From Malassezia furfur (lineage: Eukaryota): DNA of 39,052 nucleotides. The DNA lies in assembly GCA_052055015.1 (NCBI GenBank), contig JBQJIT010000058.1; one strand, 5' to 3'. The number at the start of each line of letters is the position of its first letter. The stretch's first letter is position 1. Positions 1,169 to 39,052 of this stretch are shown one piece after another. The notes under the pieces are model-generated. The model was not told the origin of the DNA. It worked only from the letters and a program-made list of their open reading frames with translations, and did not search any database. Both the position numbers and the translations under genes were made by a program.

Positions 1169-2170
1169 CTATACAAGGGGCTGCGCGAGAGTCTGGCATG
1201 GCCGTTGCATCCCGAGCTGCTGCGTCACGGCGATCGGCATACAGTACGTCGGGTCAACAGGTGCAAGGCCCGCGTAGCCGAGCAGCGAGAGGCCCGCGAC
1301 GCCGAAGAGCGTATGGAAGACGTCGGCGACGTTGCCTGGGCGGTCAGCGATACCCCCGTCGACGTCCTGTGCAGACAGGATGAATGCGGCCAACTTGGGC
1401 CCATCGATGTAGTGCAACTTGCCGAGCAGGCTCAACGACGACAGCACCCACCACGAATAGCACACGTCCTCGAGCTTCTGGGGGCGCCCATTCAGCCCGC
1501 CGCACGGGAGCTGCCGCTCGGCGAGCCAGTGCGCAAGGCGCTCCGTGTCGATGCGGTCGAGCGTGCGCAGGATCGAAAGCGCGCCCACACACGTAAACAC
1601 CTGCGCGGCGTGGCTCTCAGCGCCCTCGGTAGAGCCAAACCCGCCGTCGTAGTTGGCGCATCGCAGCACCCACGCGGTGGTGCGCTCTGTGTCGAGACGC
1701 TCGAGCGCGCCAAGATGCGCCAGTGCACTCACACCACAGTAGAGGAACCGCGTGTCCGTCTCGCCCCACTGGTCGCCCTGGAAGGCGCCCTCGGGGAGCT
1801 GCAGCGAGAGCACAACTGCGTTAGTATCGCCGCACGTACATTCGATGATGCGCTCGCGGCGCTCACCAAGCACATCGAGCGCGTTTTTCAAAGCGAGTAC
1901 CTGGATCGCACTCAGCGTGCTCAGAATGTGCGCGTCGTGCTGGGGGTACGCACCGAACCCCCCCTGCTGTTCGTCGTAGCAGCTCAGCACGAACTCGACG
2001 AGCTCGTCGCGGTCGAGCACCTCGCCAGCGTGCATCAGCTCGAGCGCACACAGACCCCAGTAGACGCCGTTCATACGCAAGTGTGCGGTCATGTGGTATG
2101 CGACGCTCGCATCGCGCTTCTGCTCGAGCTTCTTGATGAAGCGCACATGCTCCGCAACGCGCAGCGCCAT
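1169..2170 (-). CDS. BET2: Rab geranylgeranyltransferase (type II) beta subunit
   Basis: Prenyltransferase motifs HLRMNGVYWG, GETDTRF, ESHAAQVF, GRPQKLEDVCYSWW, DVFHTLFG. ATG at 2170. A 24-nt intron at 1816..1839 (GTACGT...CTAACGCAG) gives IIEFVLSLQ when spliced. Confidence 0.93.
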   Translation of the reverse strand: MALRVAEHVRFIKKLEQKRDASVAYHMTAHLRMNGVYWGLCALELMHAGEVLDRDELVEFVLSCYDEQQGGFGAYPQHDAHILSTLSAIQVLALKNALDVLGERRERIIECTCGDTNAVVLSLQLPEGAFQGDQWGETDTRFLYCGVSALAHLGALERLDTERTTAWVLRCANYDGGFGSTEGAESHAAQVFTCVGALSILRTLDRIDTERLAHWLAERQLPCGGLNGRPQKLEDVCYSWWVLSSLSLLGKLHYIDGPKLAAFILSAQDVDGGIADRPGNVADVFHTLFGVAGLSLLGYAGLAPVDPTYCMPIAVTQQLGMQRPCQTLAQPLV

Positions 2171-2205: not shown

Positions 2206-2956
2206 ATGACGTCGTGGGTGCCACTCGAAGCGAATCCGGAGCTGTTCGGCGCGTGGAGCGCCCAGCTCGGGCTCGACACGCAACAAAGCACGTTCCATGA
2301 CATCTTTGGACTCGACGAGGAGCTCCTTGCGATGGTGCCACAGCCCGTGCATGCCGTGCTGTGCCTGCTGCCGCTCACGCCGAACATCGAGGCGCGGCAC
2401 CGCAGCGAGGACGCCGCATACACGCCGCCGCAGGGCGCCGATAAGGTGCTGTGGTTTGAGCAGACGGTACGTCGCGGCCGCACACTGACCTAGATCGGCA
2501 ATGCGTGCGGCACAATTGGCCTGCTGCATGCGATTGCCAACTCGCCTGCTGCAGAGTCCATGGCGCCCGACTCGCCCCTCGCGCAGCTCCTGCGCGTGGC
2601 GCGTGGCGCGACGCCCGCGGAGCGCACCAAGTTGCTGGAAAGCTCGGATGCACTGAAGAGTGCGCACGCTGCGACTGCCGGTCAGGGGCAGACCGCCGCA
2701 CCGGACGCCGACGACCCGGTCAACCTGCACTTTGTCGCGTTTGTGCGCGGTCCCGACGGGAAGCTTTGGGAGCTGGACGGCCGCCGCCGCGGGCCGATCG
2801 CGCGCGATGTGCCCGTTGACTCCGAGGCCGCGCTGCTGCCGAGCGCCGCCAAGTTTGTGCAGGACTACTACGTACGTGGCGCCACCGCTCACACAGATGC
2901 GCACGGACCCCGACCAGGTGCAGTTCAACCTGATTGCGCTCGGACCGGCTGCTTAG
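2206..2956 (+). CDS. YUH1: Ubiquitin C-terminal hydrolase (peptidase C12, UCH-L3/Yuh1)
   Basis: WVPLEANPE, spliced QTIGNACGTIGLLH (catalytic Cys), LHFVAFV, LWELDGRR. Exons 2206..2466, 2494..2871, 2897..2956 (introns 27 and 25 nt). Confidence 0.93.
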
Positions 2957-5167: not shown

Positions 5168-7528
5168 TTACAGCGCCGAGCTGGGACGCAGCTTCAGGCC
5201 GAGCGTGCGCGCGACAATGGCGAATTCTGGGTTAGTAGCACCGCACGTACTCTCGCTCGCCTCATCGATCCGCTTCTGTGTGTTCTTTCCCGCGCCGTGG
5301 CCCGCCTGGAGCTCGACGCGGAGGAGCAGGGGGTTGGGGTTGTCCTTGCGCTGGTGCTGCAGCTCCGCAGCAAGCTTGAAAGAGTGCGCGGGCACGACAC
5401 GGTCGTCGTGGTCCGCACACGCCAGCACCATCGTGGGGTACGTTTTCGTCGCCGATACGTTGTGCAGCGGCGAGTACGTGTAGTTGTAGTCGAACGCCGC
5501 ACCGTCCTCCTGCGGGTTGCCGTAGTCGGCACACCACGCTTTGCCGATCGTCCACAGCGGGAACTTGAGCATGTCGTGCACGCCAACGTCGGCGATCGCC
5601 GCACCAATGCCGTGCTGCTCCTCGCACTGGTTCGCGACAGCCGCGACTCCGAGACCACCGTTGGAGCCGCCCATGATGGTAATCTTACCCTTGGCCGCAT
5701 AGCGCTCCTCATGCAGGTACTGCGTCGCGGCCATCACATCGTCAAACACGTTCTGCTTGTGGAAGAGCATGCCGGCCTCGTGCCACTTGTCGCCATACTC
5801 ACCGCCGCCGCGCGCGTTGACAAACGCAAGCGTCCCGCCATAGGACGCGACCCACGTCATCATCGACGGCGAGAATGTCGGGTTCAGCGGGATGTTGAAG
5901 CCGCCGTAGAAGTATACCAGCGCGGGCGCCGTGCCGTCACGCGGCATCGACTTGGGGTGCGTCAGGAACATGGGGATCTGCGTGCCGTCCTTGCTCTTGA
6001 CAAACACCTGCGTGCTGGTGTAGTCGTCGGGACGGATGCCCGCGACGTGCGTCGTGGAGTACACCGAAACCTTGGGCGGCACAACCTCTGCCTGCGGCGT
6101 GTCCTCCCACGACAGGCGGTGCACCGTGCCCGGGTTCGCGAACGACACACTCAGCACAAACGCCTCGCGGTCCGTGCGCAGCCCCGCAAGCTGGCCAATC
6201 GTGCCGACGAGCTCGGGCAGGAGGCGCTCGACACGCGTGCCGTCGAGCGTGTACAGCCACAGCTCATCCTTCACGTCGCGCGAGCACAGCACGAGCAGCT
6301 TGTTGTGGTCAACGAGCTTGGCCGCAGTCAAAATCGCCTTCGGGTCCTCGGGGATCACGTCACGGAAGTCGTCGTGGCGGCCGCGCAGCGTCGCGACGTG
6401 GGCGGTCTGCTGCGCATCGCTCGCATTCACATCAAGCATCACGACACGGTAGTTGGGCGCGTCCTTATTCGTGGTAAAGTAGAAGCGGTTGCCGTCGTTG
6501 CCGATGTAGCTCAGCGTATACGCAAACTCGGTCACGATCGGGATCCAGGCGAGCTGATCGAGCGGCTTCCCCTCGAGCTGCGCGAGGTAGAAGCGCTGCT
6601 TGGTGTCGGTGTCCTTAGAGTTCTCCAGGAGCATCCAGCGCCCGTCGTCGGTGACCGTCGGATGCCACATGGAGCTCGGCAGGTCGGCGTCCTTGCCGAC
6701 GACGCATACGTCCTTCGACTGCGGCGTGCCGAGGCGGTGGTAGTACAGCTCGGCATCCTTGTTCGCATCCGTCTCCGTGCCGCGGTCCGCGTGGGCCACG
6801 GGCGGGTAGCGCTGGTAGAAGAAGCCTTGGCCGTCGTGCGTCCACTCGGCGGTGGAGAACTTGACGTTCTCGAGCACGTCCGGCAGGCGTCCTGCGCCGC
6901 CCTCGGTACCATCGTTCGACGTGAGTGGCGCATCCGTCGAGCGCACGTACAGTTTCACCCAGTCGGAACCGCTCACCGACAGGCCGTATGCGACGTACTT
7001 GCCCGTGTGCGAAAAGGCGGTGAGCGACAGGGCGACGGTGCCGTCGGAGGACAGCACGTTCGTGTCAAAGAACAACTCGCCCACGGGCTCCTTTCCGCCG
7101 TTGTACGCGTCGATCTGCTCGCGCGTCGCACGGTAGATCTGGCTCTGCGGCGCGAGGCCGGCGTTGTACGAGTAGTAGTACCGCCCATCGTGCTTGTGCG
7201 ACGGCGCCGAGGCTCGCACGTAGTCCCAGTTCTTTTCGAGGCGCTCTTTGAGCACCTCCTTGTCACCACACTCGTCCAGGAACGCCTTGGTGTACGCGGC
7301 CTGCGCCTTGGTCCATGCGTCCGTCTCGGGGCTCTGCGACGGCGGCACTTCGAGCCAATCGTACGGCTCAGGCACGGTCACTTGGCCGTGTTTCTGGCTC
7401 GCATACGTCTTCGAAGCGTCCGAACGGCGCGCAGGGGGGTACGGCGCAGCACTCGGGGTCCAGTTGGTGCGCACACTCATCGTCCACGCACGATAAGGAA
7501 GCAGCGGACGGCGTAGCCAGCGCGACAT
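5168..7528 (-). CDS. Prolyl oligopeptidase (peptidase S9A)
   Basis: YPPARRSD...PEPYDWLE N-terminus, beta-propeller, catalytic GGSNGG / DDRVVP / AGHGAGK. In-frame ATGs at 7528 and 7480. A 24-nt intron at 5227..5250 gives EASEKFAIV when spliced. Confidence 0.93.
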   Translation of the reverse strand: MSRWLRRPLLPYRAWTMSVRTNWTPSAAPYPPARRSDASKTYASQKHGQVTVPEPYDWLEVPPSQSPETDAWTKAQAAYTKAFLDECGDKEVLKERLEKNWDYVRASAPSHKHDGRYYYSYNAGLAPQSQIYRATREQIDAYNGGKEPVGELFFDTNVLSSDGTVALSLTAFSHTGKYVAYGLSVSGSDWVKLYVRSTDAPLTSNDGTEGGAGRLPDVLENVKFSTAEWTHDGQGFFYQRYPPVAHADRGTETDANKDAELYYHRLGTPQSKDVCVVGKDADLPSSMWHPTVTDDGRWMLLENSKDTDTKQRFYLAQLEGKPLDQLAWIPIVTEFAYTLSYIGNDGNRFYFTTNKDAPNYRVVMLDVNASDAQQTAHVATLRGRHDDFRDVIPEDPKAILTAAKLVDHNKLLVLCSRDVKDELWLYTLDGTRVERLLPELVGTIGQLAGLRTDREAFVLSVSFANPGTVHRLSWEDTPQAEVVPPKVSVYSTTHVAGIRPDDYTSTQVFVKSKDGTQIPMFLTHPKSMPRDGTAPALVYFYGGFNIPLNPTFSPSMMTWVASYGGTLAFVNARGGGEYGDKWHEAGMLFHKQNVFDDVMAATQYLHEERYAAKGKITIMGGSNGGLGVAAVANQCEEQHGIGAAIADVGVHDMLKFPLWTIGKAWCADYGNPQEDGAAFDYNYTYSPLHNVSATKTYPTMVLACADHDDRVVPAHSFKLAAELQHQRKDNPNPLLLRVELQAGHGAGKNTQKRIDEASESTCGATNPEFAIVARTLGLKLRPSSAL

Positions 7529-8480: not shown

Positions 8481-9539
8481 CTAGATGAATCCTGCATAAT
8501 TCACCGGACCTACGGTCTGCGCGCCAACGAGCTCGAGCGCGCCGCTGGCGCCGTCACGCGAGAGCAGCGCGAGCGTCTCAGAGCCCTGGTTCGCGACGAC
8601 CACCCAGCGCTCGTCCTCGCTGAGCGCAAAGTGGCGCGGCACGCGGCCGCCGCACGCGTAAAAGACGGGCGTGCTCAGCGCGCCGTCGGCCGCGCGCGGC
8701 AGGGCCGCCAGCACGTCCTCGTGGGCGTCGCTGCGGCAGCTCACGTACACGAAGCGACCGTCAGACGACACGGCGACCTCGGCGAGCGTGTCTGTATGTT
8801 TCTGCGGGGGGCGCACCGGTACGGCGGTTCCCTGGGCCGTGAGCTTTGCGCCGTCCCACGCAAAGGCCTGCACCTCGAGCGAGAGCTCCATCACGACGTA
8901 GGCGGTCGTCTCGTGGAACACGAGATGGCGCGGGCCGCTCCCGTCTGGCACGGGCACCGAGGTCGCGAGCGCCGCGTCGTGTGCGCGCGCGCCCACGCGC
9001 ACAATGTGGATGCGGTCGGAGCCCAAGTCGCAGATCAGGACGTGTTTGTGGTCCGGTGACGGCATCACCTGGTGTGCGTGCGGCATTTCCTGGCGGTCTG
9101 CGACACGCCCGTGGCCGCTGCGGTGGAAGGGTATGGTGTGCGGCGCGCCGAGCGTGCCGTCGTGCGCGAGGTCGAGCACGGACATGGATCCCGACGCGTA
9201 GTTGGCTGCGTGTGAGCGGGCCACGTACCGACAAACACCTGCGCGCCGTACGGCATGCGCACGATCGCGATGCTCACTGCGCCGTCGCCGCCGACGTGCG
9301 CGGAGGCGTGCAGCTCGAGCTCGTTGGCGGTCTCGCGAAAGACGGACAGGACGGCGTTGGGTGTCTCGCCGACGCACAACACCAGCTTCTCGTCGAGCGT
9401 GATGTGCTCGAGCCACGCCGGTGCGTCACAGGCGATGCGCCCGGTGCGCCGGAGCTCGGGCGGGGCGAATGCATACGATGCGCTGCGTGAGCCGTGCGCC
9501 TTACACTTCACCCGCGTACGACGCGGTGCGGATCGTCAT
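8481..9539 (-). CDS. Lactonase family 7-bladed beta-propeller (YbhE/6-phosphogluconolactonase or carboxy-cis,cis-muconate cyclase-like)
   Basis: Spliced VFVANYASG, RQEMPHAHQV, DLGSDRI, GSGPRHLVF, PRHFAL, VANQGS. Exons 9539..9505, 9482..9229, 9205..8481 (introns 22 and 23 nt). Confidence 0.87.
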
Positions 9540-12639: not shown

Positions 12640-13981
12640 TTACACAGTCTTCCATTCCGAATCGTTCTCCGTAGCCACGTCGTTGCTCTTCTCCGCACTC
12701 GCGCTGGGCGCCGCGCTCCTCCACGCACCCTCCGTCTTCGCCTTGGGCGCACGTGCCTTCTTCTCCTCATGCTTCTGGCGCTCCTCGCGGCGCAGGCGGT
12801 CCTGCACGCGGATCTTTTCGTCGATCTCGCGCTCACGCTGGCCCACGTCCACCGGCTTCGCTGCACCGAACGGGTTGGAACGCGCCGAGCCCTGCGAGGG
12901 CGACGTCGGCGTGCCCGAGGGTGTCGAGCCACGCGGCTTCAGGTCCAGCTTGCGGCGTTCCGTGGAACCCTGGCTGCCGCCCGACGACAGGCGCCCGGCC
13001 CGCCAGTTCGCAAAGCCCTCCTCGCTGGCGCCCGGCTCGCGACGCTCAAAGCCACCGCCACGGCGCTCGCCGTCCGCCGAGCCGAAGCCGAAGCGCGACG
13101 TGTTGTTACGGCCCGTGACCGGCTTGCCCGTGCGCCAGTCGGATGCCGTGTCGCTGCGGCTCGGCTCCATCGGCTCCATGCTCCGGCGCGGCGGGCGGTC
13201 GGCAGAGGGCGTAAACTTGCCGCCAAACCCGCTCCGCGACCCATCAGCACCAACGCCCATCTCGTCAAAGCCCGAGCCGGACCCAAAGTCGCCGAAACCG
13301 CCGCGGTTCGACGAGGGAAGCGGCGTCGAGCGGCGCCACTGCGACGCGTCGTCGGCCATGGTGCTCTTAAGGCCACGCGACGACGGCTCCGCGACGCTGA
13401 CGCGCACGTTGCGGTTGTCCAGAGGCCTTCCCGTGTACGTCAGCGCCTCCTTCAGCTGGTCCAGCGTCTCAAACTCGACGTAGCCGTACCCCTTCGGCCT
13501 GCCGTCGTGGCTGCTCACCAGCCGCACACTCAGCGGCTTGAGCGGCTCGAAAAAGTACTGCACATCCGACTCCGTACTCTCAAAGGACAGGTTCACCACG
13601 AACGCCGTGAACGGCGGCTCCGTGGGCAGCGGGGGCTCTTCGCGCGCAAAGGGCGCGCCGTGGTCCTCGAAACGCGAGCGGCCCATCGGACGCGAACCGA
13701 GGCCACCCGAGCCAAAGCCAGACATCTGGTCACGGGGGGCAGCTGCAACGTTAGCTACCTGCAAACGTCGCTGCACACGTACGAGCCGAGGGAAGTTCGT
13801 CCATTTCGTCGGCCCACGAGCTGCCGGTCGCTGTTGCGTGTTAGTACGCTGCACAGAGCCTAAGCGTGTACCCACTTTCGTCGGCCAAGAAGTCCACCAG
13901 GGACATCTTGTTCTGTTGCTTCTTAGGTGCTGCACATCGTTAGTCTCCTTTCTCGCAAGCCACAGCCGAACACCTACCCAT
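12640..13981 (-). CDS. TIF3: Translation initiation factor eIF4B
   Basis: Spliced N-terminus MAPKKQQNKMSLVDFLADETTGSSWADEMDELP, RRM (PFTAFVVNL, KGYGYVEF), RKLDLKPR and SNPFGAAKPVD. Exons 13981..13978, 13929..13876, 13830..13783, 13742..12640 (introns 48, 45, 40 nt). Confidence 0.92.
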
Positions 13982-14915: not shown

Positions 14916-15341
14916 ATGCGCACCAATGATCTGACCGCGGATCGCAACTGGCACCTGGGGAGCGAACATGTGGGCCTCATCCATGTGTGCAAGTGCACCT
15001 GCTTCACAACCAACACAACCCTCATTCCACTCTATGCGCCTACGCCCCAAGGTGATCTGTGCAGCGCGTGCACCAAGCAGTTCTGTCTTGAGCGTGCCGA
15101 GGGATGCCATGGGGCCCAGATTGCCGAGGTCAACGACGATACTGCGACTGGCTACGAGGGCCAGGTGTGGGCCAAATGCTTCAGTACGTGGTAGACTAAC
15201 GCAGTTCGCGACCCAACAAAAGACCAGTCGATCGTGCTATTCTATCTGATTGCTGTACTTGGCCTGCTCTTTTGGATATTTGTGCGGAGCCGGGCAGGGC
15301 AGGCACTTTGGGCGCGCCTACGCGCTACGCTTCGTTTGTAA
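14916..15341 (+). CDS. Small Cys-rich, C-terminally membrane-anchored uncharacterised fungal protein
   Basis: CKCTCF...CSACTKQFC...C...CF. Removing a 21-nt intron (15184..15204) continues into IRDPTKDQSIVLFYLIAVLGLLFWIFV (TM). Start is uncertain (14916 or 14847). Confidence 0.75.
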
Positions 15342-15619: not shown

Positions 15620-16337
15620 ATGGAAGCCAAGCTGCAGTCGCTCAAGGTGCCGGAACTCAAGGATTTGCTCACGAAGGCGTCGTTGCCTGTTACTGGCAAC
15701 AAGCCCGACCTGATTAAGCGGCTGCTTGAGAACCCGTCGGCGACGTCGTCGTTGGGGGACGCCGAGGCGCCTGCCTCAGAAACCGAGTCGGCGCCTTCAG
15801 CGCCGTCGGAGCCCGCTGCGCCTGCCGCTGAGACGGCGACGCCCGCTGCCACGACCGAGGCTGCCGAGACTCATGTTCCGCAAGCGCCGGCCGCTGCGGA
15901 ATCGCCGGACCAAGAGGCACGCAAGCGCAAGCACCTGGCGGAGCTGGAGAAGCGCAAGGCGCGTGCGATCCGCTTTGGGCAGCCTACGGAGGAGCTCGAG
16001 AAGGAGATTGCGCGTGTGACCAAGTTTGGTCTGCCGGAAGGCGAGGCGGATGCTACCCAAAAGATCGACCACGGTTTGCGCACCGGCAAGCGTGCCCAGC
16101 CCTCAGCTCAGGCGGGTCCGACGAAGCAGGCCAAGACCGAGGCCAAGGCCCCTGCCGCACCGGCAGTGTCGGTAGGTGACGTTGCTAACGTGCAGGAGGA
16201 AGAGCTGGAGCGGAGAAAGCGCCGCGCTGAGCGCTTTGGGCTGGTCGATCCCGCCGAGGAGGAAAAGAAGCGCCAGCGTGCGGAGCGATTCAACGTGCGT
16301 AGCCGCGAGTCTGACGCAGGCGCCCAAGGCGGCGTAA
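15620..16337 (+). CDS. THO1: SAP-domain RNA-binding protein (Tho1/SARNP/MOS11 family)
   Basis: N-terminal SAP domain LKVPELKDLL...LPVTGNKPDLIKRL and repeated RKARAIRFG / RKRRAERFG motifs. Exons 15620..16171, 16196..16294, 16320..16337 (introns 24 and 25 nt). Confidence 0.85.
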
Positions 16338-17868: not shown

Positions 17869-18855
17869 TTACTGCTGGCGCATCTTGCTGCGCTTGCCCG
17901 TCTGCGCCTGGAAACCGGTCTTGATGGCGCTGACCGAGCGCTGCGAGCCGCATGCCTCGCAAGTCATGAAGTAAATCCGGTTCTCTTTTGTGAGGAGCGT
18001 GTTCGGCGAGCGGCACGTCTTGCAGGTGACGTATTCCACAATGTATCGCCGCAGCACGTTTTCGATCTGCTTCGGCTGGAAGCGACCACGGATCACGAGG
18101 CGCTGGCTACCGTCCATGGAGCCGACGGTACCCAGCTCGGTGAAGAGGTATTGGATGACGTGGTCCGGCTGGCGGTGCATACGCTTGCAGATCTCGAGGA
18201 CGTTGGCAAACACCGTCTTTTTAGAGCCATCGCGCTGCACAACGGGCGGCACCATGGTGTACTTCTTCTTCTCACCCGAGAGCGCGGGGTTCTGCAGACG
18301 CAGCGTGCGGAAGATGCGGCCGAGGAGCTCCTGGTAGGTGTAGTCGCGGTCGGTGCCCTGCCAGGCCTCGACGTCTTCGGTCTTGCCACCGGCCGCATCC
18401 TCGTCCTTCTCCTGCGCGAAGGGGTTCTCGCCGTCGTCCTCGGCATTGTCCTCGTCATGCTGCTCGCCGAGCTCCTTCTCGAACTCCTCGAGGTCGAACG
18501 CGGCCTTCTTCTTCTTCTTCTTCTTCTTCTTCATCTCGCCAAACTGGAGGTCAGTCGCGTGGGCCGCACGTACGTCGAGCGCGCCGTCCTCGTCGGGGGG
18601 CGCATCGTCTTCCTTGGTCTCCGGCGCAGGCGCGTCCTCCGTCGCCTTGGGCGCGTCGCTGGCCGGCGCGTCCTCCTTGGGCGCTTCTGTGTCCTTCTTG
18701 GTGTCGGCGTCGAAGTCAAAGTCCATCGGGATCTTCTTCTTCTTACCGCTCTTCTTCTTCAGGCCACCGAAAAGGTCGGCCGCATCCTGAGGAGCCTCTT
18801 GCTGCTGGGCAGCCGGCGGGTCCGCCACCGTGTCCTGGCCCACTGCCGTCGACAT
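17869..18855 (-). CDS. SUI3: Translation initiation factor eIF2 beta subunit
   Basis: Lysine boxes, [15 protein letters not shown]2-C2 finger (CKTC...CEACG), [10 protein letters not shown] 30-nt in-frame intron lies at 18544..18573. Confidence 0.95.
18505..18531 (-). repeat. (AAG)9 coding microsatellite encoding an eIF2beta poly-Lys box
   Basis: Nine perfect ctt units on the + strand. Confidence 0.9.
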
Positions 18856-18904
18856 CACGGTCGAAAAGGGTGGGTGGGCGCATCGCCGATCTTTTGCCGC
18901 AGCG

Positions 18905-18921
18905 CACGTGGTTATCACGTG
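18905..18921. promoter_or_regulatory. Tandem CACGTG E-boxes (second is ATCACGTGAC, Cbf1-type) in the SUI3/ATP3 divergent promoter
   Basis: CACGTG at 18905 and 18916. The same hexamer recurs in six other promoter regions of this window. Confidence 0.55.
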
Positions 18922-19016
18922 ACATGATACCCGGCGTTCCCCGGGGCCGCTCGGGGGCGGCGCGCTGGCAGCGGCCGAAAGCACTTGGTCTCGACCTCGA
19001 CGAACCTGGATCGGTG

Positions 19017-20005
19017 ATGATTTCCCGTGTTGCTACTAGGCCTTCTGTCGCGTCTGCGGTGAGCGCGCTGCGTGCAGCGCCCATGGCTGGCTTCCACGCG
19101 AGCGCTGCGCCCCAGGCGTCGCTCCGTGAGCTGGAGAGCCGTGTGAAAAGTGTGCGCAACATTGAGAAGATCACCAAGGTACGATCGCATAGCGTGGGGC
19201 GCGAGCACGATGCTGACACAGGTGCGCCGCAACGGTTTGGTGCCGTATTTCTTAGTCGATGAACATGATCGCCTCGACCAAGCTCAACCGCGCGCAGCGT
19301 GCGATGGACTCGGGTGTCAAGTACGGCCACGCCAGCGAGGAGGTGTTTAAGCAGGCCGACGCGCAGCCCGAGAAGGACGGCCGCGAACTGATCATTGTCG
19401 TGTCGTCTGACAAGGGTCTGTGCGGTGGTATCCACACCTCGGTGTCGAAGCGCACCCGCAAGATGGTTGCCGAGGCCCAGGGCGAGAAGCCCTCGGTGGT
19501 GGTGCTCGGTGAGCGCAGCAAGGCGCAGCTCGCGCGTGCCCTGCCCAGCAACCTGGTCCTCTCCTTCAACCAGATCGGCAAGGACATCCCGACCTACGAG
19601 GATGCCCTGGCCATCACGGCGACGATCCTCGAGAGCGGCCTCGAGTTTGACGTGGTGAACATTGTGTACAACAAGTTCGTCTCGTCGATCTCGTACGAGT
19701 CGGCGGTGATGCCCGTGTACTCGCAAAAGGCGCTGGAGGAGGCCCCCAAGTTTGGCCAATACGAGCAGGAGGAGGAGGTCACCAAGGACCTCGCCGAGTT
19801 CTCGCTGACGAACGCCATCTTTGCGACGCTCGTTGAGGGTCACGCCACCGAGATCAACGCCAGGCGTAACGCCATGGACAACGCGTCGAACAACGCCGCG
19901 GATATGATCACCAACCTCAACCTGCTCTACAACCGTGGTCGCCAGGCCGCCATTACGAACGAGCTGATCGAGATTATCACGGGTGCTACGGCGCTCGCTG
20001 GCTAA
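19017..20005 (+). CDS. ATP3: Mitochondrial F1 ATP synthase gamma subunit
   Basis: Presequence, spliced [59 protein letters not shown]. Exons 19017..19178 and 19256..20005. Confidence 0.96.
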
Positions 20006-20199: not shown

Positions 20200-21939
20200 A
20201 TGACCGACGGAGCGCAAGCGGCGTTCCCCGAGCATGATGGTGCGTAGTGTGCGCTAACGCAGCATCGAGTCCATTTCATTTCGCGAAGCAAGAGGAGGCG
20301 GTGATGGCGTACTGGAACGCGATTGACGCGTTCAAGACGCAGCTCGCCAACTCAAAAGGGAAGAAGCCCTTCTCGTTCTACGATGGCCCGCCGTTCGCGA
20401 CCGGTCTGCCGCACTATGGCCACCTGCTTGCGGGTACGGTGAAGGACATTGTGACGCGCTTTGCGACGAGCACGGGTCACTACGTCGACCGCCGCTTCGG
20501 CTGGGACTGCCACGGCCTGCCGGTGGAGCACGAGATTGACAAGAAGCTCGGTGTGCGCGGCAAGGACGACATCCTGAAGATGGGCATTGCGCAGTACAAT
20601 GCCGAGTGCCGTGCGATTGTCATGCGCTACCAGTCCGAGTGGCGCGCGACCGTCGAGCGCATGGGTCGCTGGATCGACTTCGACCATGGCTACCGGACGA
20701 TGGACACCAACTTTATGGAGACCGAGTGGTGGGTGTTCAAGACGCTCTTCGACAAGGGCCAGGTGTACCGTGGCCTGCGCGTGATGCCCTACTCGACGGG
20801 CCTTACCACGCCCCTGTCCAACTTCGAGGCGGGCAGCAACTACAAGGAGGTGCAGGACCCGGCGGTGACGGTTGCCTTTGTGCTCCGCGACGACCCCACG
20901 ACCGCGTTCCTGGCATGGACGACCACGCCCTGGACGCTGCCGAGCAACCTCGCGGTGTGTGTGCACCCCGACCTGGACTATGTCAAGATCTGGGACGAGG
21001 AGCGCCAGCGCCACTTTATTCTGTGCGACAAGCTGCTCGGCACCGTGTACAAGGACCCGAAGAAGGCCAAGATCAAGACCGTGGAGAAGTACAAGGGCAA
21101 GGACCTGGGCGGTATCAAGTTTGTTCCGCTGTACAACTACTTCTACGAGCAGTTCAAGGACCGCGCGTTCCGTGTGCTGGTCGACACCTACGTCACGGCC
21201 GAGACGGGTACGGGTGTTGTGCACCAGGCGCCTGCATTTGGTGAGGATGACTACCGCGTTGCGCTCGAGCACGGCGTGATCGACAAGGAGACGCAGCCGC
21301 CGTGCCCGATCGACGAGAGCGGCCGCTTCCTGCCGGTGGTCACCGACTTCGCCGGGCAGTACGTCAAGGACGCGGACAAGAACGTGCAGAAGGACCTCAA
21401 GGGGCGTGACCTGTTGATTGTCCAGAGCACGATTCGCCACCAGTACCCATTTTGCTGGCGCTCCGGCACGCCGCTCATCTACCGCGCGATCCCGGCGTGG
21501 TTCGTGCGTGTGGAGAGCATTCAGGGCGAGCTGCAGGCGAACAACCAGAAGACGCGCTGGGTGCCGCAGACCATCGGCGAGAACCGCTTCGGGAATTGGA
21601 TCGCGGCCGCGCGCGACTGGAACGTGTCGCGTAACCGCTACTGGGGCACACCCATCCCGTTGTGGGTCAGCGACGACTTTGAGGAGGTGGAGTGCATCGG
21701 CAGCATCGCCGAGCTCGAGGAGCGCTCGGGGCGCACGGGCATCACAGACTTGCACCGCGACCACATCGACCCCATCACGCTGCCGTCGCGCCAGGGCAAG
21801 GGCACGCTGCGCCGCGTCGAGGAGGTGTTTGACTGCTGGTTCGAGTCGGGCAGCATGCCGTATGCCCAGGCGCACTACCCCTTCGAGAACCGCGAGACGT
21901 TTGAGGCGAGCTTCCCGGCCGACTTCATCTCGGAGGGCC

Positions 21940-24198: not shown

Positions 24199-24754
24199 AT
24201 GGCGCAGGTCAATCCGTAAGTGGGGCGCATGGCTCACCCAGCGTGCTGGCACTGGTCAGCCGCGCCGACTCGCTGGCAAACGGTAGGTGCACGCGCTCAT
24301 GCAGGTTTCAATAATGTGTACCAACAGACGCTGCCCGCCGTCGATGCGCTGGCGCCGCTGCACCCCGACGACCCCCAGTGCGAGCCGTTTTTGCAGGTGC
24401 TGCGCGACGGCCTGACGGCGATGGAGGGATACACGGAGCAGATGGTCAACATGCTGTATGAGGTCGATGTGTACCTCGCGCCATCCACGACGCAGTCTGC
24501 CGCAGGTTTCAACCCGCAGGAAGCACTCTCGCACGTCTCGGATCTCTTCCACGTACGTCGGCGCGCGCCGCGCAGGCTGACCCCAGAGCTACCAGGCCGA
24601 GCTGCTCGCCAAGCGCGAGGCGCTGGCCGACTACACGTGCGAGGATATCACGCCGCAGCAGTTTGCCGCGCAGTGGCGCACCCTCGACGAGGTCCAGGCC
24701 GGGCGCAAGCAGGAGATGGACGACTTGGCCGACTTGTTGGCCCAGTTTGGCTAG
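24199..24754 (+). CDS. Uncharacterised 157-aa helical protein (4 exons)
   Basis: Exons 24199..24215, 24242..24282, 24305..24552, 24587..24754 are joined by three consensus introns (26, 22, 34 nt) into one open frame MAQVNPVLALVSRADSLANGFNNVY...LFHSYQAELLAKRE...LLAQFG. Confidence 0.75.
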
Positions 24755-24762
24755 CTACCGAC

Positions 24763-26121
24763 CTACAGGTGGGTTTGCATCTGCGACGCACCCACGGGCA
24801 CATGCTGCGCGGCGCCACGCATCGCCTTGTAGCGCAGCACCTGCTGCACGTAGTCGTCAAACAGCTCGTTGGTATCTTCGGGTCCACCGGCGTGCTCAGG
24901 GTGGAACTGCACGCCCCAGACGGGTGCCTTGTTGGTGTTACCCTCGAGCGCCTCGGTGCGCACGATGCCCTCAATGCTCCAGTCGTTGGCGTTGACGAAC
25001 CACGGCTTCCAGCCCTCGGGCCACGCATCCTCGCCTGTCTCCGAGTAGGCCAGCGCATACCCATGGTTCTGCGAGGTGATGTACACACGGCCGGCCTGCA
25101 CGCTCATGTTGCCCGAGCCGAGGGCGAGCACGGGCTGGTTGTGGCCACGGTTGCCAAACTTCATGCGGTACGCACGCAGCCCGATGGCGCACCCGATTAC
25201 CTGGCTGCCCATGCAGATCCCAAACACCGGGCGGTCCCACTCGGCGATCGTCTTGGCGACCGTGGTGATGGCAGGCCCGATCGAGTTGGGGCTCCCCGGC
25301 CCATTGCTCAGGAACAGGCCGTCAAACTGGTCGCGTACTGCGTTAAAGTCGTAGTTCCACGGCAGCACCGTCACCGTAACGCCCTGGCGGAGCAGCGAGC
25401 GCAGAATGTTGGCCTTGGAACCAAAGTCGAGCAGCGCAATGTGCGCGCGCGCCGCCGCAGCGCCACCGACGGGCTGGATGGTGTACGGCTCCTTGGTCGA
25501 GACACGGGCAATCAGGTTGTCGGCCATGGGGTCGTGGTACTCGGCCGCATCCGGCACGCGTTGGGCGTCCTCGCCGACGAGGATCGCGCCGAGCGTCGAC
25601 CCCTGGTTGCGCAGCAGCGTCGTGAGTGCACGCGTGTCGACGCCCTGGATGCCGGGCACGTTGTGGCGCGCGCACCAGCTCGCGAGCGACTCGTACGCCT
25701 GGAAGTGCGAGAAGCGCTCGCACAGCTCGCTCACAATGACGCCGGCGGCCTGCACGCCGCGCGACTCGAGAAAGCAGCCTACGTCGACGTCCGCGGGGTG
25801 CTCGCGAGCGGAGCCTGGCATGCTGTTGTCCGGCACACCGTAGTTGCCGATCAGCGGCGTCGTAAAGGCCAGCAGCTGGCCCTGGTACGACGGGTCGGTG
25901 AGCGAGTCGGTGTACGACGTGATCGCCGTGGTGAACACCGTCTCGCCAAACACGCTATGCTGCGCGCCGAACGAGCGGCCCGGGAACGTCTGGCCCGTTT
26001 TGAGGCGCAGCACTGCCGGCTGCGGCGTGGGCGCCGGCGACCAGGTGGTCAGGGTGCGCTGCGCTGCCGCCCAGCGCACGGGCCGGGCAGCGATACGAGA
26101 AGCGAAAGAAACAGGAAGCAT
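24763..26121 (-). CDS. CPA1: Arginine-specific carbamoyl-phosphate synthetase small (glutaminase) subunit, mitochondrial precursor
   Basis: Presequence, GETVFTT, TDPSYQGQ, PLIGNYGVP, GVDTRALT, LSNGPG, catalytic GICMG and QFHPE. Confidence 0.96.
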   Translation of the reverse strand: MLPVSFASRIAARPVRWAAAQRTLTTWSPAPTPQPAVLRLKTGQTFPGRSFGAQHSVFGETVFTTAITSYTDSLTDPSYQGQLLAFTTPLIGNYGVPDNSMPGSAREHPADVDVGCFLESRGVQAAGVIVSELCERFSHFQAYESLASWCARHNVPGIQGVDTRALTTLLRNQGSTLGAILVGEDAQRVPDAAEYHDPMADNLIARVSTKEPYTIQPVGGAAAARAHIALLDFGSKANILRSLLRQGVTVTVLPWNYDFNAVRDQFDGLFLSNGPGSPNSIGPAITTVAKTIAEWDRPVFGICMGSQVIGCAIGLRAYRMKFGNRGHNQPVLALGSGNMSVQAGRVYITSQNHGYALAYSETGEDAWPEGWKPWFVNANDWSIEGIVRTEALEGNTNKAPVWGVQFHPEHAGGPEDTNELFDDYVQQVLRYKAMRGAAQHVPVGASQMQTHL

Positions 26122-29494: not shown

Positions 29495-30704
29495 ATGAAG
29501 CTGTTGGTGAAGTCGTTGGCCGGTGGTAATTTCCATCTGGACGTAGAGCCGAGCGAGACGGTAGGTGGCTGGCATCACTCACACAGATTGGCGCTGTCAA
29601 GGAGTCGATCCAAAAGCAGCAGGGCCACGCCGTCGAGCTGCAGAAGCTCATTTTCTCGGGCAAGATTCTCGAGAATGACAAGACGATCGAGTCGTACGGG
29701 ATCAAGGAGAAGGATTTCCTGGTGGTGATGGTGTCCAAGGTATGCCACTCTGCTGACCCAGCCGAAGGCTGCCAAGCCCGCGCCCAAGGCCGAGGAGCCG
29801 AAGAAGGAGGAAGCCGCGCCGGCTGCTCCGAGCGCCCCGGCCGATGCTCCGTCTGACGCGCCCGCGGCGCCCGCTGCCGAGGCGCCAGCGGCTGCGGCTC
29901 CCAGTGCGACGCCGGCGAGCAGCGCACCGGAGTCCACGCCCTCGCAGCCTGCTGGCCTGCAGGCTGCCTCGTTCCGTACGTCGTGTGCCAACTCACCCAG
30001 TGTCGGGCCCCGAACTCGAGTCGGCCATTAACAACATCGTCGAGATGGGCTTCCCCCGTGAGGATGTGCAGCGTGCGATGCGCATGAGCTACAACAATCC
30101 CGACCGCGCCGTCGACTACCTGATGAACGGCCTGCCTGCCGAGCCAACGCCGCAGGCTTCGCCCGCCGCGCCAAGTGCCGCTGCGCCGGCGCCAAGTGCC
30201 GGCGGCGGTGCCACGGATGCACCGCGGTCAGGCAACCTGTTTGAGCAGGCTGCTGCGCAGGCGGCACGTGGTGCAGCGGCGCCTGGTGCCGACGTGCTGC
30301 CTGGCGAGGACGACGGGCAGGGCCGCCAGCTGATCGACCTCGGCAACCCCCAGGTGCTGGGTCAACTGCGTGCGCTGGTGGAGCAAAACCCGGCGGCGCT
30401 CCAGCCGCTGATCCAGGCGCTCGTGCAGAGCAACCCGCAGCTCGCTGAGGCGCTCAGCGCCGACCCCGAGGGTGTGCTGCGCATGCTGGCGGGCGGCGAA
30501 GGACTCGAGCCACTGGAGGGCGAGGAGTCGTTCGAGGTGCCGACGCTGCAGCAGCTCAGCGAGGAGGACCGCGGACAGGTCGAGCAGATCATGGCGATGG
30601 GCATCCCCGAGAGCAAGGCGATCGAGAGCTACTTCATGTGTGGACGCAACCTCGAGATGGCGGTTCAGTACTACTTCGAGAACCCGCAGGACTTCGAGGA
30701 CTAG
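29495..30704 (+). CDS. RAD23: UV excision repair / proteasome shuttle protein Rad23
   Basis: UBL (QKLIFSGKIL), UBA1 (IVEMGF), XPC-binding region, UBA2. Exons 29495..29560, 29587..29739, 29762..29975, 30001..30704 (introns 26, 22, 25 nt). Confidence 0.95.
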
Positions 30705-36810: not shown

Positions 36811-39052
36811 ATGGAAGCTGGACGTACGTGGGAGAGTGCTGACGCAGTGCGTACGCCGCTGACGAGCTTGCATCTGCTCGATGCGCTGCGAAAGGGCGAC
36901 CGCGCAGCGATCGAGTCGATCCTGTCCGGGCAGGACTGGAGCGCCCCTCGGCCGCACCTCGAGTCGCCGCTGCACCTCGCCGTGCTGTGCGCCGAGCCGG
37001 CAACGATCGACTATGTCTTGAAGCAATCCGGCATCGACCCCAACATGCGTACGAGCGACACGGGCAACACGCCACTACACCTCGCCGTGTCGAGCAACCG
37101 CCCGGACGCCGCGGCGCTGCTGCTGTCGCTCCCGACCATCAATGACACCCTACCTAATGCGGAGGGCAAGACGCCCATGGAGCTTGTGACGACGGCCGAT
37201 ATGATGCATCTCTTGCAATGTGCGTGCCACCTGCTGACCTGTAGCCTCGCGCATGGAGCTGCGCGGTAAGATTGCCGACACCATTGAGGCGTACGAGAAG
37301 GAAACCTCGGGGGGTGCCGCAGAAGGGCCCGCACACAAGGAGCTGCTCGCGCTCATTGAGCTGCCACGCATCACAGCCGACGACCTGGCAACCGCGAGTC
37401 GCAAGTCGGGCAACGACGTGCTGCACGCTGCAGTGCGCGCCAAGGATGCGCCGCTGATCACCGCCAGCATCCGTCGCGGCGCCGATCCATTTGTGAAGGA
37501 CATGAACGGGAACACGGCGGAGAGCATGACCAACGACCCGTCTGTGCACGCTCTTCTACGCCAGCTGATGAATGCTGAGGCGGACCAGTCGATTCGCACG
37601 AACCAGTCGCCGACCTACCGCGGCTTCCTCGGCAAGTGGACCAACATGGTGGGCGGCTACAAGATGCGCTGGTTCGTCCTCAAGGACGGCATCTTGTCCT
37701 ACTATCAGTCCCCCGATGACGAGGGCCGCCATGCGCGCGGCTCCATCTACCTGCGCCACGTCAAGATCCTCGCCGACTCGCGCGACAGGATCCGGTTCCA
37801 GATCGTGAGCCAGATGGGCAGCGGCATAAACAAGATGTACTTGCGCGGCAGCGATGCGACCGAGTCGGTCCGCTGGCTCCAGATGCTCGAGAAGGCGAAG
37901 CGCTTTGAGCAGGCGCGCGCCGCGGGGAACACGCAGACAGTGGCCCCCGGCGCCGCTGCTGTGCCGGCGCAGCCAATGCCGACCCAGGTGCCAGGTGATT
38001 CGCAGCGTGTCTCAGTGAGCTCCGCAGCCGGCCCGCTGCCGCGCCTCGCGCCTGTCGCCGGTCAACCGGGTGCCCAAGAGTCGCTGAGCATGCTGCGTGG
38101 GCATAGCAGTATCGGCTCGGCGTCGATTGCCACGGACGATGAGGAGGACATCCCCGACGACCACAGCACCACGAGTGTGGAGCCGAGCGAGGACCTTCCG
38201 CACGCGAAAGAATTCAGCGTGGTTGCGAACCTGATCGAGACGCACTTTGACGTCGCGCTGCAGCTCATCAGCAAGCTCTCGCAGATGCGCCGCGCAGGTG
38301 TGCGCGGCGCGCCGGGCGTTGCGCCCGGCACAGTGGCGCCGCCCGTGACCGAAGTCGAGGGCCTCGCCAAGCCCGTGTCCCAACTGGCGCTCGGTCAGAC
38401 GCCCGTCGGGCAGGACGAGTGGGACTCGTCGCTGGAGGCGATGCGTGCGTCGGTGACCGACCGCCTGCGTCTGTGGCACGAGTACGTCGCGATGGTGCAC
38501 AGCCGCGAAAAGTATCTCAAGGACCAGGTCGAGCGCGAGGTGGCGACGCGCCAGCTCTGGGAAGAGCAGATGATGCAGCTCGGCAAGCAGCACAGCGAGC
38601 TGGAGGGCAATCTGCGCGAGGCCATGTCGGAGATCAACACGCAGCGCAAGGCGCTCCGCAAGGTCCATGGCGAGGAGGCGTACGAGGCAGTGAAGAACGA
38701 GAGCAAGAGCCTGTCGGCCGGCTTGACGGACGCCGTCGGCGGCGCTGCAGCGGCGGTCGGTTCCATGGCCTCATCGCTCTTCTCGAAGCCGTCCCGCTCG
38801 TCGACGTTTGACGACGTGGACGACGAGTTCTTCGACGCGGTCGACTCGGGCAACCTGCCGAACCTGTATGTCGAGAAACCGCTCGAGCAGCGCCGCGCCT
38901 CGTCCAACCGATCGCCGGCGCCGCCCGCCGCGGAGAACGCGGCGCCCGATGCACAGCCCCCCAAGGAGCCCGCAGCGGCGCCGCAGCAGCAGGAGCCTAG
39001 CCCGGGCACGGGCGCAGGTGCAGCGGCCGGCATGGGTGCCGCGGCCGGCGCA
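36811..39052 (+). CDS. Oxysterol-binding protein of Osh1/Osh2 type (ankyrin, PH, FFAT); 3' end outside window
   Basis: Ankyrin repeats (SPLHLAV, GNTPLHLAV), PH domain (GFLGKWTNMVGGYKMRWFVL), FFAT motif EFFDA at 38825..38839 in the same frame. Introns 36824..36847 (24 nt) and 37220..37244 (25 nt). Confidence 0.92.

Follow-up and report, generated by a model that had tools for sequence, protein, structure and literature searches.

Recursive splicing through ratchet AG|GT sites is known from long Drosophila and mammalian introns, and spliceosomal twin introns (stwintrons), in which an internal intron interrupts a splice signal of an external intron, occur among the Pezizomycotina. A zero-nucleotide-exon form of recursive splicing is reported for the 375-nt BOT1 intron of Cryptococcus neoformans, which is split into parts of 210 and 165 nt (bioRxiv 10.1101/224170), and complex intervening sequences are reported from Lipomyces, where removal in one or in two reactions is given as alternatives in L. 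starkeyi (PMC7138796). These reports agree with the background on which a sequence-only reading of the locus described here had drawn, namely that AG|GT ratchet sites define recursive splicing in long animal introns and that nested or abutting complex introns are described in some ascomycetes (bioRxiv 10.1101/224170; PMC7138796).

Branch sites that lie far from the 3' splice site are also on record, with 63 cases reported in Schizosaccharomyces pombe and 104 in C. neoformans (bioRxiv 10.1101/224170). The second intron of S. pombe rap1 is described as having a branchpoint-distant 3' splice site that depends on Sde2, Cay1, and Tls1 (PMC9508853). For Saccharomyces cerevisiae, 10 nt is cited as the shortest distance from branch to 3' splice site in nature, and a ruler function that sets a minimum is ascribed to Prp18 (PMC10711555). 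Within Malassezia, the curated annotation of M. sympodialis is reported to comprise 5350 introns with a mean length of 30 bp, 99% of them supported by RNA-seq (PMC5389616). Our literature search turned up no report of recursive or tandem splicing for Malassezia.

The window analyzed here, a stretch of 39,052 nt from Malassezia furfur (contig JBQJIT010000058.1) with a GC content of 59-75% per kb, encodes the gamma subunit of mitochondrial ATP synthase (ATP3) on the plus strand. Exon 1 (19017-19178) comprises 54 codons (MISRVATRP...NIEKITK), and it aligns with the N-termini of 12 orthologues. Exon 2 (19256-20005) comprises 249 codons plus TAA, begins with SMNMIAS, and matches the F1 ATP synthase gamma family (Pfam PF00231, E=7.6e-65, profile positions 21-285). 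Among the protein matches listed, the best named ones to exon 2 were from Malassezia sp. CBS 1788.. (73%) and M. sympodialis (72%), and ORFs from public assemblies matched it at 74-100%. In all 12 annotated orthologues that were aligned, ITK directly adjoins SM with no gaps and no extra residues, and therefore exactly 77 nt (19179-19255) must be removed in phase 0, as the sequence-only reading had proposed for the KITK|SMNMIAS junction. The same reading had named a lost micro-exon as an alternative origin; since none of the 12 orthologues carries extra residues at the junction, this origin is not supported.

Protein searches returned neither a complete spliced ATP3 product nor a partly spliced one from the species or its closest relatives, which is weak as a negative, since it reflects what has been sequenced so far. 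That the intron merely reflects an assembly error or a pseudogene is barely credible. Nothing was found in favor of such an artefact, both exons are intact and conserved, and a public assembly that is independent of this one contains a near-identical exon-2 ORF (P0003, with a stated identity of 100%, although one residue differs on reading). Moreover, the closest relative (P0125, described below) has an intron of equal length.

To establish the intron norm of the window, we combined a motif scan with a scan of reading frames, the latter using a codon model for which 22 Pfam-supported ORFs served as the training set, and then checked single cases and curated the result. Besides the ATP3 intron, this yielded 30 candidates that measure 21-48 nt (median 25 nt), which makes the ATP3 intron the longest of the 31 candidates and about three times the local norm, in keeping with the earlier claim. 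Donors among the 30 were GTACGT (17), GTGCGT (4), GTAGGT (4), and others (5), and branch motifs were CTGAC (13), CTAAC (8), CTCAC (7), and CTGAT (2). In these candidates, 16-38 nt separate the 5' end from the branch A, which lies 5 nt from the 3' G in 18 of the 30 and at most 10 nt away in any, although regularities of this kind, including that all have CTNAY and that the first AG is used, are partly true by construction because the set was picked by a GT..CTNAY..AG motif. Some candidates also have weak coding flanks. The loose form of the full intron motif had 41 distinct 3' ends in the window versus 13.6 +/- 3.8 in shuffled sequences.

The other candidates of the window resemble the ultra-short introns of M. 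sympodialis, whereas the ATP3 intron is about three times longer and the intron inferred for M. sympodialis at this position measures 26 nt (P0129, which matches the M. sympodialis exon 1). The 5-nt spacing between branch and 3' end is exemplified by candidates at 20240-20262 (+), 15184-15204 (+), and 1816-1839 (-), and the geometry of the second step in the spliceosome of this yeast may differ from that of S. cerevisiae. Three further candidates were set aside during curation. A 65-nt candidate at 9455-9519 (-) turned out to be an ordinary intron of 37 nt (9483-9519), a 59-nt candidate at 24733-24791 (-) lies at an ORF end and was excluded as doubtful, and a potential second tandem case at 36824-36866 was rejected, as judged by eye, because the stretch following its 24-nt candidate intron continues as coding sequence.

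The first 43 nt of the ATP3 intron (19179-19221, GTACGA...GCTGACACAG) make up a complete intron of the local type, at the long end of the local size range. The branch-site motif CTGAC occupies 19213-19217, with its branch A (19216) at a distance of 38 nt from the 5' splice site. It is followed by a proximal CAG (19219-19221) whose G lies 5 nt after that A, the modal local distance. Directly behind this CAG stands a donor-like hexamer, GTGCGC (19222-19227), a candidate ratchet 5' splice site that opens the remaining 34 nt of the intron (19222-19255, GTGCGC...TTCTTAG). The two features on which the sequence-only reading was built, a complete 43-nt intron inside the 77 nt and a new donor immediately after it, are thus both present in the sequence. 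Juxtaposed 3' and 5' splice sites of the form YAG|GTRNG lie inside the intron as CAG|GTGCGC (19219-19227), and within the upstream segment a branch site stands at a workable 5 nt from the internal AG.

Translation also agrees with the predicted consequence of stopping halfway, in that removal of the first part alone leads into a frame reading VRRNGL... and a stop at 19348-19350. As 43 and 34 both leave a remainder of 1 on division by three, removal of the second part alone gives the same frame, shifted by +1, and the same premature stop is reached whichever single part is removed.

These features invite comparison with recursive splicing, with which the ATP3 intron shares juxtaposed 3' and 5' splice sites within one intron, an upstream branch site, and a putative donor that would be regenerated after the first excision. 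It differs in scale (43 + 34 nt versus hundreds to tens of thousands), in a downstream part that has no consensus branch site, in a ratchet GT that is not conserved in the nearest relative, and in being known from sequence alone. With stwintrons and the Lipomyces introns it has in common a fungal intervening sequence that would be removable by consecutive reactions, and, as in Lipomyces, new splice sites may have arisen inside an existing intron. One-step and two-step routes may also coexist in the ATP3 intron, as reported for L. starkeyi (PMC7138796). However, stwintrons and the complex introns of Lipomyces are nested, whereas the two units in ATP3 simply abut and nothing is interrupted. The intron does not qualify as a stwintron, since its primary sequence leaves the two donors, the branch motif, and the two AGs whole.

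One candidate for the main route is removal in two steps, in which splicing to the proximal CAG would first take out the 43-nt intron, and the AAG|GTGCGC thereby restored would act as the 5' splice site for excision of the last 34 nt. We regard this route as possible but on balance unlikely. It would account for a first part that is complete by local rules and that matches the layout of the whole introns of relatives, and it would avoid a 3' splice site more than 10 nt from the branch A, which none of the 30 local candidates has. Zero-nucleotide-exon recursion is, moreover, reported as proven in C. neoformans, itself a basidiomycete yeast (bioRxiv 10.1101/224170). In a variant of the two-step route, both parts would be removed independently and in either order around a zero-length exon. 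Such an arrangement could have originated from the insertion of a 34-nt GT...AG segment abutting the old 3' splice site, and, provided that it was spliced, a segment of this form would have been acceptable from the outset. In its most explicit form, a rather doubtful one in our judgement, the two-step account would hold that a spliceosome tuned to introns of about 25 nt, with 5-10 nt from branch to 3' splice site, cannot bridge 39 nt, that the intron is consequently two abutting mini-introns of 43 and 34 nt produced by a GT...AG insertion exactly at the old 3' splice site, and that their removal is the smallest recursive event known.

The strength of the internal donor was assessed with a position weight matrix built from the first 28 local introns. 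The internal GTGCGC scored 5.2 bits versus 2.4 bits for the real ATP3 donor, a difference that favors two steps. The leave-one-out scores of the 28 local donors ranged from -0.1 to 14.1 bits, with three of them below 5.2, and 227 of the 4629 GT sites in the window (4.9%) scored at least as high as the internal site. This suggests that the internal donor is plausible but weak, and not rare; the share of GT sites that score as well counts against the two-step route.

The juxtaposition itself was also compared with chance expectation. An AG followed by GT[AG]NG was found at 35 of the 4271 AG sites of the window (0.8%), and the composite CTNAY-N1-6-AGGT[AG]NG was found once, at 19213. The composite motif was present at least once in 97 of 200 dinucleotide shuffles, and as such it does not exceed chance for a scan of many windows; that it is expected in about half of windows of this size counts against the two-step route. 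What is specific about the internal AG|GT is its position, at the modal distance behind the conserved branch site of the intron.

Elsewhere in the window, the same hexamer heads a 47-nt intron-like motif, GTGCGC...CTGATCCAG, at 30370-30416 (+). This motif has a CTGAT, a CAG, and normal spacing, its length is not a multiple of 3, and it falls within the XPC-binding domain, as aligned by Pfam, of a RAD23-like gene. Its location in a conserved coding domain indicates that the motif alone does not dictate splicing, and a GTGCGC that heads no intron there again weighs against the two-step route. The motif looks like a decoy that must stay unspliced, with introns defined by more than the motif; the additional factor is perhaps a tight length limit.

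The downstream part of the ATP3 intron presents a further difficulty for removal in two steps. A scan of 19222-19255 found no CTNAY branch site, as the sequence-only reading had stated, and the best candidate and sole near-branch motif, CGTAT (19244-19248), departs from the consensus at a T found in every one of the 30 local candidates. The same motif underlies a different one-step account, in which branching would occur at A19247 and the upstream CTGAC would be an unused relic. Although A19247 lies 8 nt from the 3' G, within the local range of 5-10 nt, it lies 69 nt from the 5' splice site versus 16-38 nt locally. The mismatch at the invariant position also applies here, and it is the upstream DADT/CTGAC-compatible motif that is conserved across three species. 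We consider branching at A19247 highly improbable.

The evolutionary history of the intron was examined in read-through ORFs, which are prokaryote-style calls on contigs of relatives from which introns were inferred at the amino acid level only. With the read-through ORF of the window itself (P0123) as the query, 13 ORFs of 44-142 residues and two longer ones were recovered. In all 15, KITK is followed by V, the reading of GTN; the position of the intron is therefore an old one, and it extends to Agaricomycete-like sequences. Where an ORF ends in SR-stop, it has entered the TCGATGA of exon 2, and intron length can be read from it. The lengths inferred in this way were 77 nt for the window (P0123), 77 nt for P0125 (27 read-through residues), 47 nt for P0124, and 26 nt for P0129, and in P0127, where the frame passes into exon 2, the inferred length was 40 nt. 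A scan of metagenomes for DNA of close relatives yielded 43 loci with a best identity of 61%, and no close relative was among them. Public protein collections with prokaryote-style ORF calls evidently hold translations of intron read-through, from which the length, the phase, and part of the sequence of introns can be recovered.

In three species (P0123, P0125, and P0124), KITK is followed by ten residues and then by DAD, which back-translates to GAY GCN GAY and is compatible with GCTGAC, although this is not proof of it. The offset of the branch motif, DAD(T) at the protein level, is thus kept in these three. The AG in P0124 lies 8 nt after the DAD motif, and the ATP3 introns of relatives end 7-9 nt after their inferred branch motifs. 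In the window and in P0125, the intron continues for 39 nt beyond the branch A. The layout of the first part of the M. furfur intron is accordingly homologous to that of whole introns in relatives, and on this comparison of read-through sequences the first part corresponds to the whole intron of P0124. The second part appears to be a lineage-specific addition of about 30 nt present in the species of the window and its nearest relative.

That nearest relative is P0125, in which 33 of 34 exon-1 residues are identical to those of the window. The two introns have VRSH, DADT, and the final SR in common and share just 2 of 17 other interior residues, with differences at no fewer than 20 of 81 nt. 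The retention of DADT against this background suggests that the branch region is constrained. At codon 15, the window has GGT, comprising the G of the proximal AG and the GT of the internal donor, versus D (GAY) in P0125. As judged at the amino acid level, P0125 keeps the first G of this codon and has A in place of the donor G, and it has no internal GT. At this level the comparison bears on the internal GT; the A of the proximal AG falls on the third base of the preceding T codon, a position that the amino acid leaves free. Where the window has its distal tract, P0125 has LLSY, which back-translates to a pyrimidine-rich stretch.

Conservation of the ratchet in ATP3 orthologues, which had been suggested as a check, is therefore not what was found, given that P0125 has an intron of the same 77 nt with GAY in place of GGT. 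If the gene of P0125 works, the intron is removed there without a ratchet, and a single intron with an unusually distant end becomes the more likely arrangement. This absence of the GT from the nearest relative of equal intron length is also evidence against two steps in M. furfur. The recursive-splicing interpretation thus stands in its anatomy (CAG|GTGCGC and the division into 43 + 34 nt) and fails in the conservation of its ratchet; the observation behind it is confirmed, and the interpretation is supported in part, by anatomy and not by the conservation test.

The explanation that we prefer, with about even confidence, is that a single old intron gained some 30 nt by insertion in this lineage, and that it is probably removed in one step. 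Under this explanation, the intron would be an ancient phase-0 spliceosomal intron of the gene for the gamma subunit of mitochondrial ATP synthase, to which about 30 nt were added between the conserved branch site (GCTGAC, A19216) and the 3' splice site. The 5' splice site would be at 19179 with branching at A19216, and exon ligation would take place at the distal TAG (19253-19255), 39 nt from the branch, with help from a T-rich tract. The proximal CAG|GTGCGC, one base different from the sequence of the relative, would probably be incidental. At most, use of the proximal CAG might give rise to a minor frame-shifted isoform, for which a second splicing event from AAG|GTGCGC could provide a rescue in this species alone.

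Removal in one step is consistent with the fixed junction, the old position, the conserved DAD offset, the lack of GT in P0125, and the lack of CTNAY in the second part. The T-rich tract before the distal AG and the unspliced GTGCGC motif in the RAD23-like gene provide further support. By analogy, the documented use of branches far from the 3' splice site in other yeasts may also be taken to favor it. The anatomy of the intron, the 77-nt requirement, the conserved offset of the branch motif, and the missing GT of the relative are observed; the choice of AG by the spliceosome is inferred.

The T-rich tract CGTATTTCTT (19244-19253) immediately precedes the distal TAG and contains 6 T and 8 pyrimidines in 10 nt. 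Six or more T were reached by just 0.54% of the 10-mers of the window, and the maximum T count before the 3' splice site among the 28 local introns compared was 4. A pyrimidine- or U-rich tract before the distal AG, as looked for at distant 3' splice sites, is accordingly present. In older yeast work, U-rich tracts reportedly favor distal 3' splice sites, and Slu7 is said to be needed only beyond about 7 nt. SLU7, PRP18, and PRP22 are factors to which a role in long spacing between branch and 3' splice site is attributed.

Several observations stand against one step. The distance of 39 nt from branch A19216 to the distal 3' splice site is unprecedented among the 30 local candidates, in which the maximum is 10 nt. 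The interval between A19216 and TAG 19253-19255 is not free of AG, as CAG 19219-19221 lies within it. Since this CAG stands at the modal 5 nt found in 18 of 30 candidates, it should by local rules compete strongly, and its use alone would be fatal to the frame. No RNA structure that masks the proximal AG was found in folds of the intron (z-score +0.74) or of the segment from the branch to exon 2 (+1.38), and the internal donor outscores the gene's own donor. The second intron of S. pombe rap1 is similar in having a long spacing between branch and AG relative to the norm of its genome, but the ATP3 intron is unlike it in having an intervening AG at the distance that the local spliceosome normally uses. 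Given the 39-nt distance, the CAG at modal distance, and the missing masking fold, each model breaks one local rule.

The presence of two competing AGs behind one branch site, with a proximal product that stops at 19348-19350, also raises the prospect of regulated unproductive splicing. In such a scheme, the proximal CAG and the distal TAG would be alternative acceptors, and degradation of the proximal product would tune ATP3 output. We consider this improbable, as ATP3 is an essential housekeeping gene and neither a conserved element beyond the branch motif nor a structure signal was detected. Furthermore, unproductive splicing of this kind overlaps with both the one-step and the two-step readings as a minor by-product and not as designed control.

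Two other candidate explanations for the added sequence were examined and rejected. A small RNA hosted in the long intron was sought between 18900 and 19500, with no Rfam matches at E up to 1. A local duplication as the source of the 34-nt second part was ruled out, as the window contains no second copy of this segment with 3 or fewer mismatches.

If removal in two steps is true, it would mean that recursive splicing is not confined to very long animal introns, and it would provide a way for a genome of extremely short introns to tolerate an insertion in an intron of an essential gene. It would also be an instance in which a new intron arose immediately next to an old one. If instead removal in one step is true, the locus would provide a natural test case of 3' splice-site choice, in which an AG 5 nt away is skipped in favor of an AG 39 nt away. 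The ATP3 intron makes a good subject for experiment and does not so far amount to evidence for a new mechanism.

Additional observations were made on the other introns and genes of the window. Among 27 candidate introns tested, eight have lengths that are multiples of 3 and contain no in-frame stop, such that their retention would add 8-16 residues. These are located at 18544-18573 (-), 36824-36847 (+), 16172-16195 (+), 5227-5250 (-), 1816-1839 (-), 2675-2701 (-), 13930-13977 (-), and 13831-13875 (-); the one at 36824-36847 may be read either as an intron or as coding sequence. The three longest candidates other than the ATP3 intron (40, 45, and 48 nt) are all found at the 5' end of a single RRM-domain gene (13743-13977, -); the coding scores of their flanks are poor, and they may be UTR introns or may be miscalled. 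Finally, ATP3 and an eIF2-beta-like gene on the opposite strand (PF01873) are arranged head to head with starts about 160 nt apart (18856-19016, with the eIF2-beta start placed by eye), which suggests that the two genes have a short promoter region in common.
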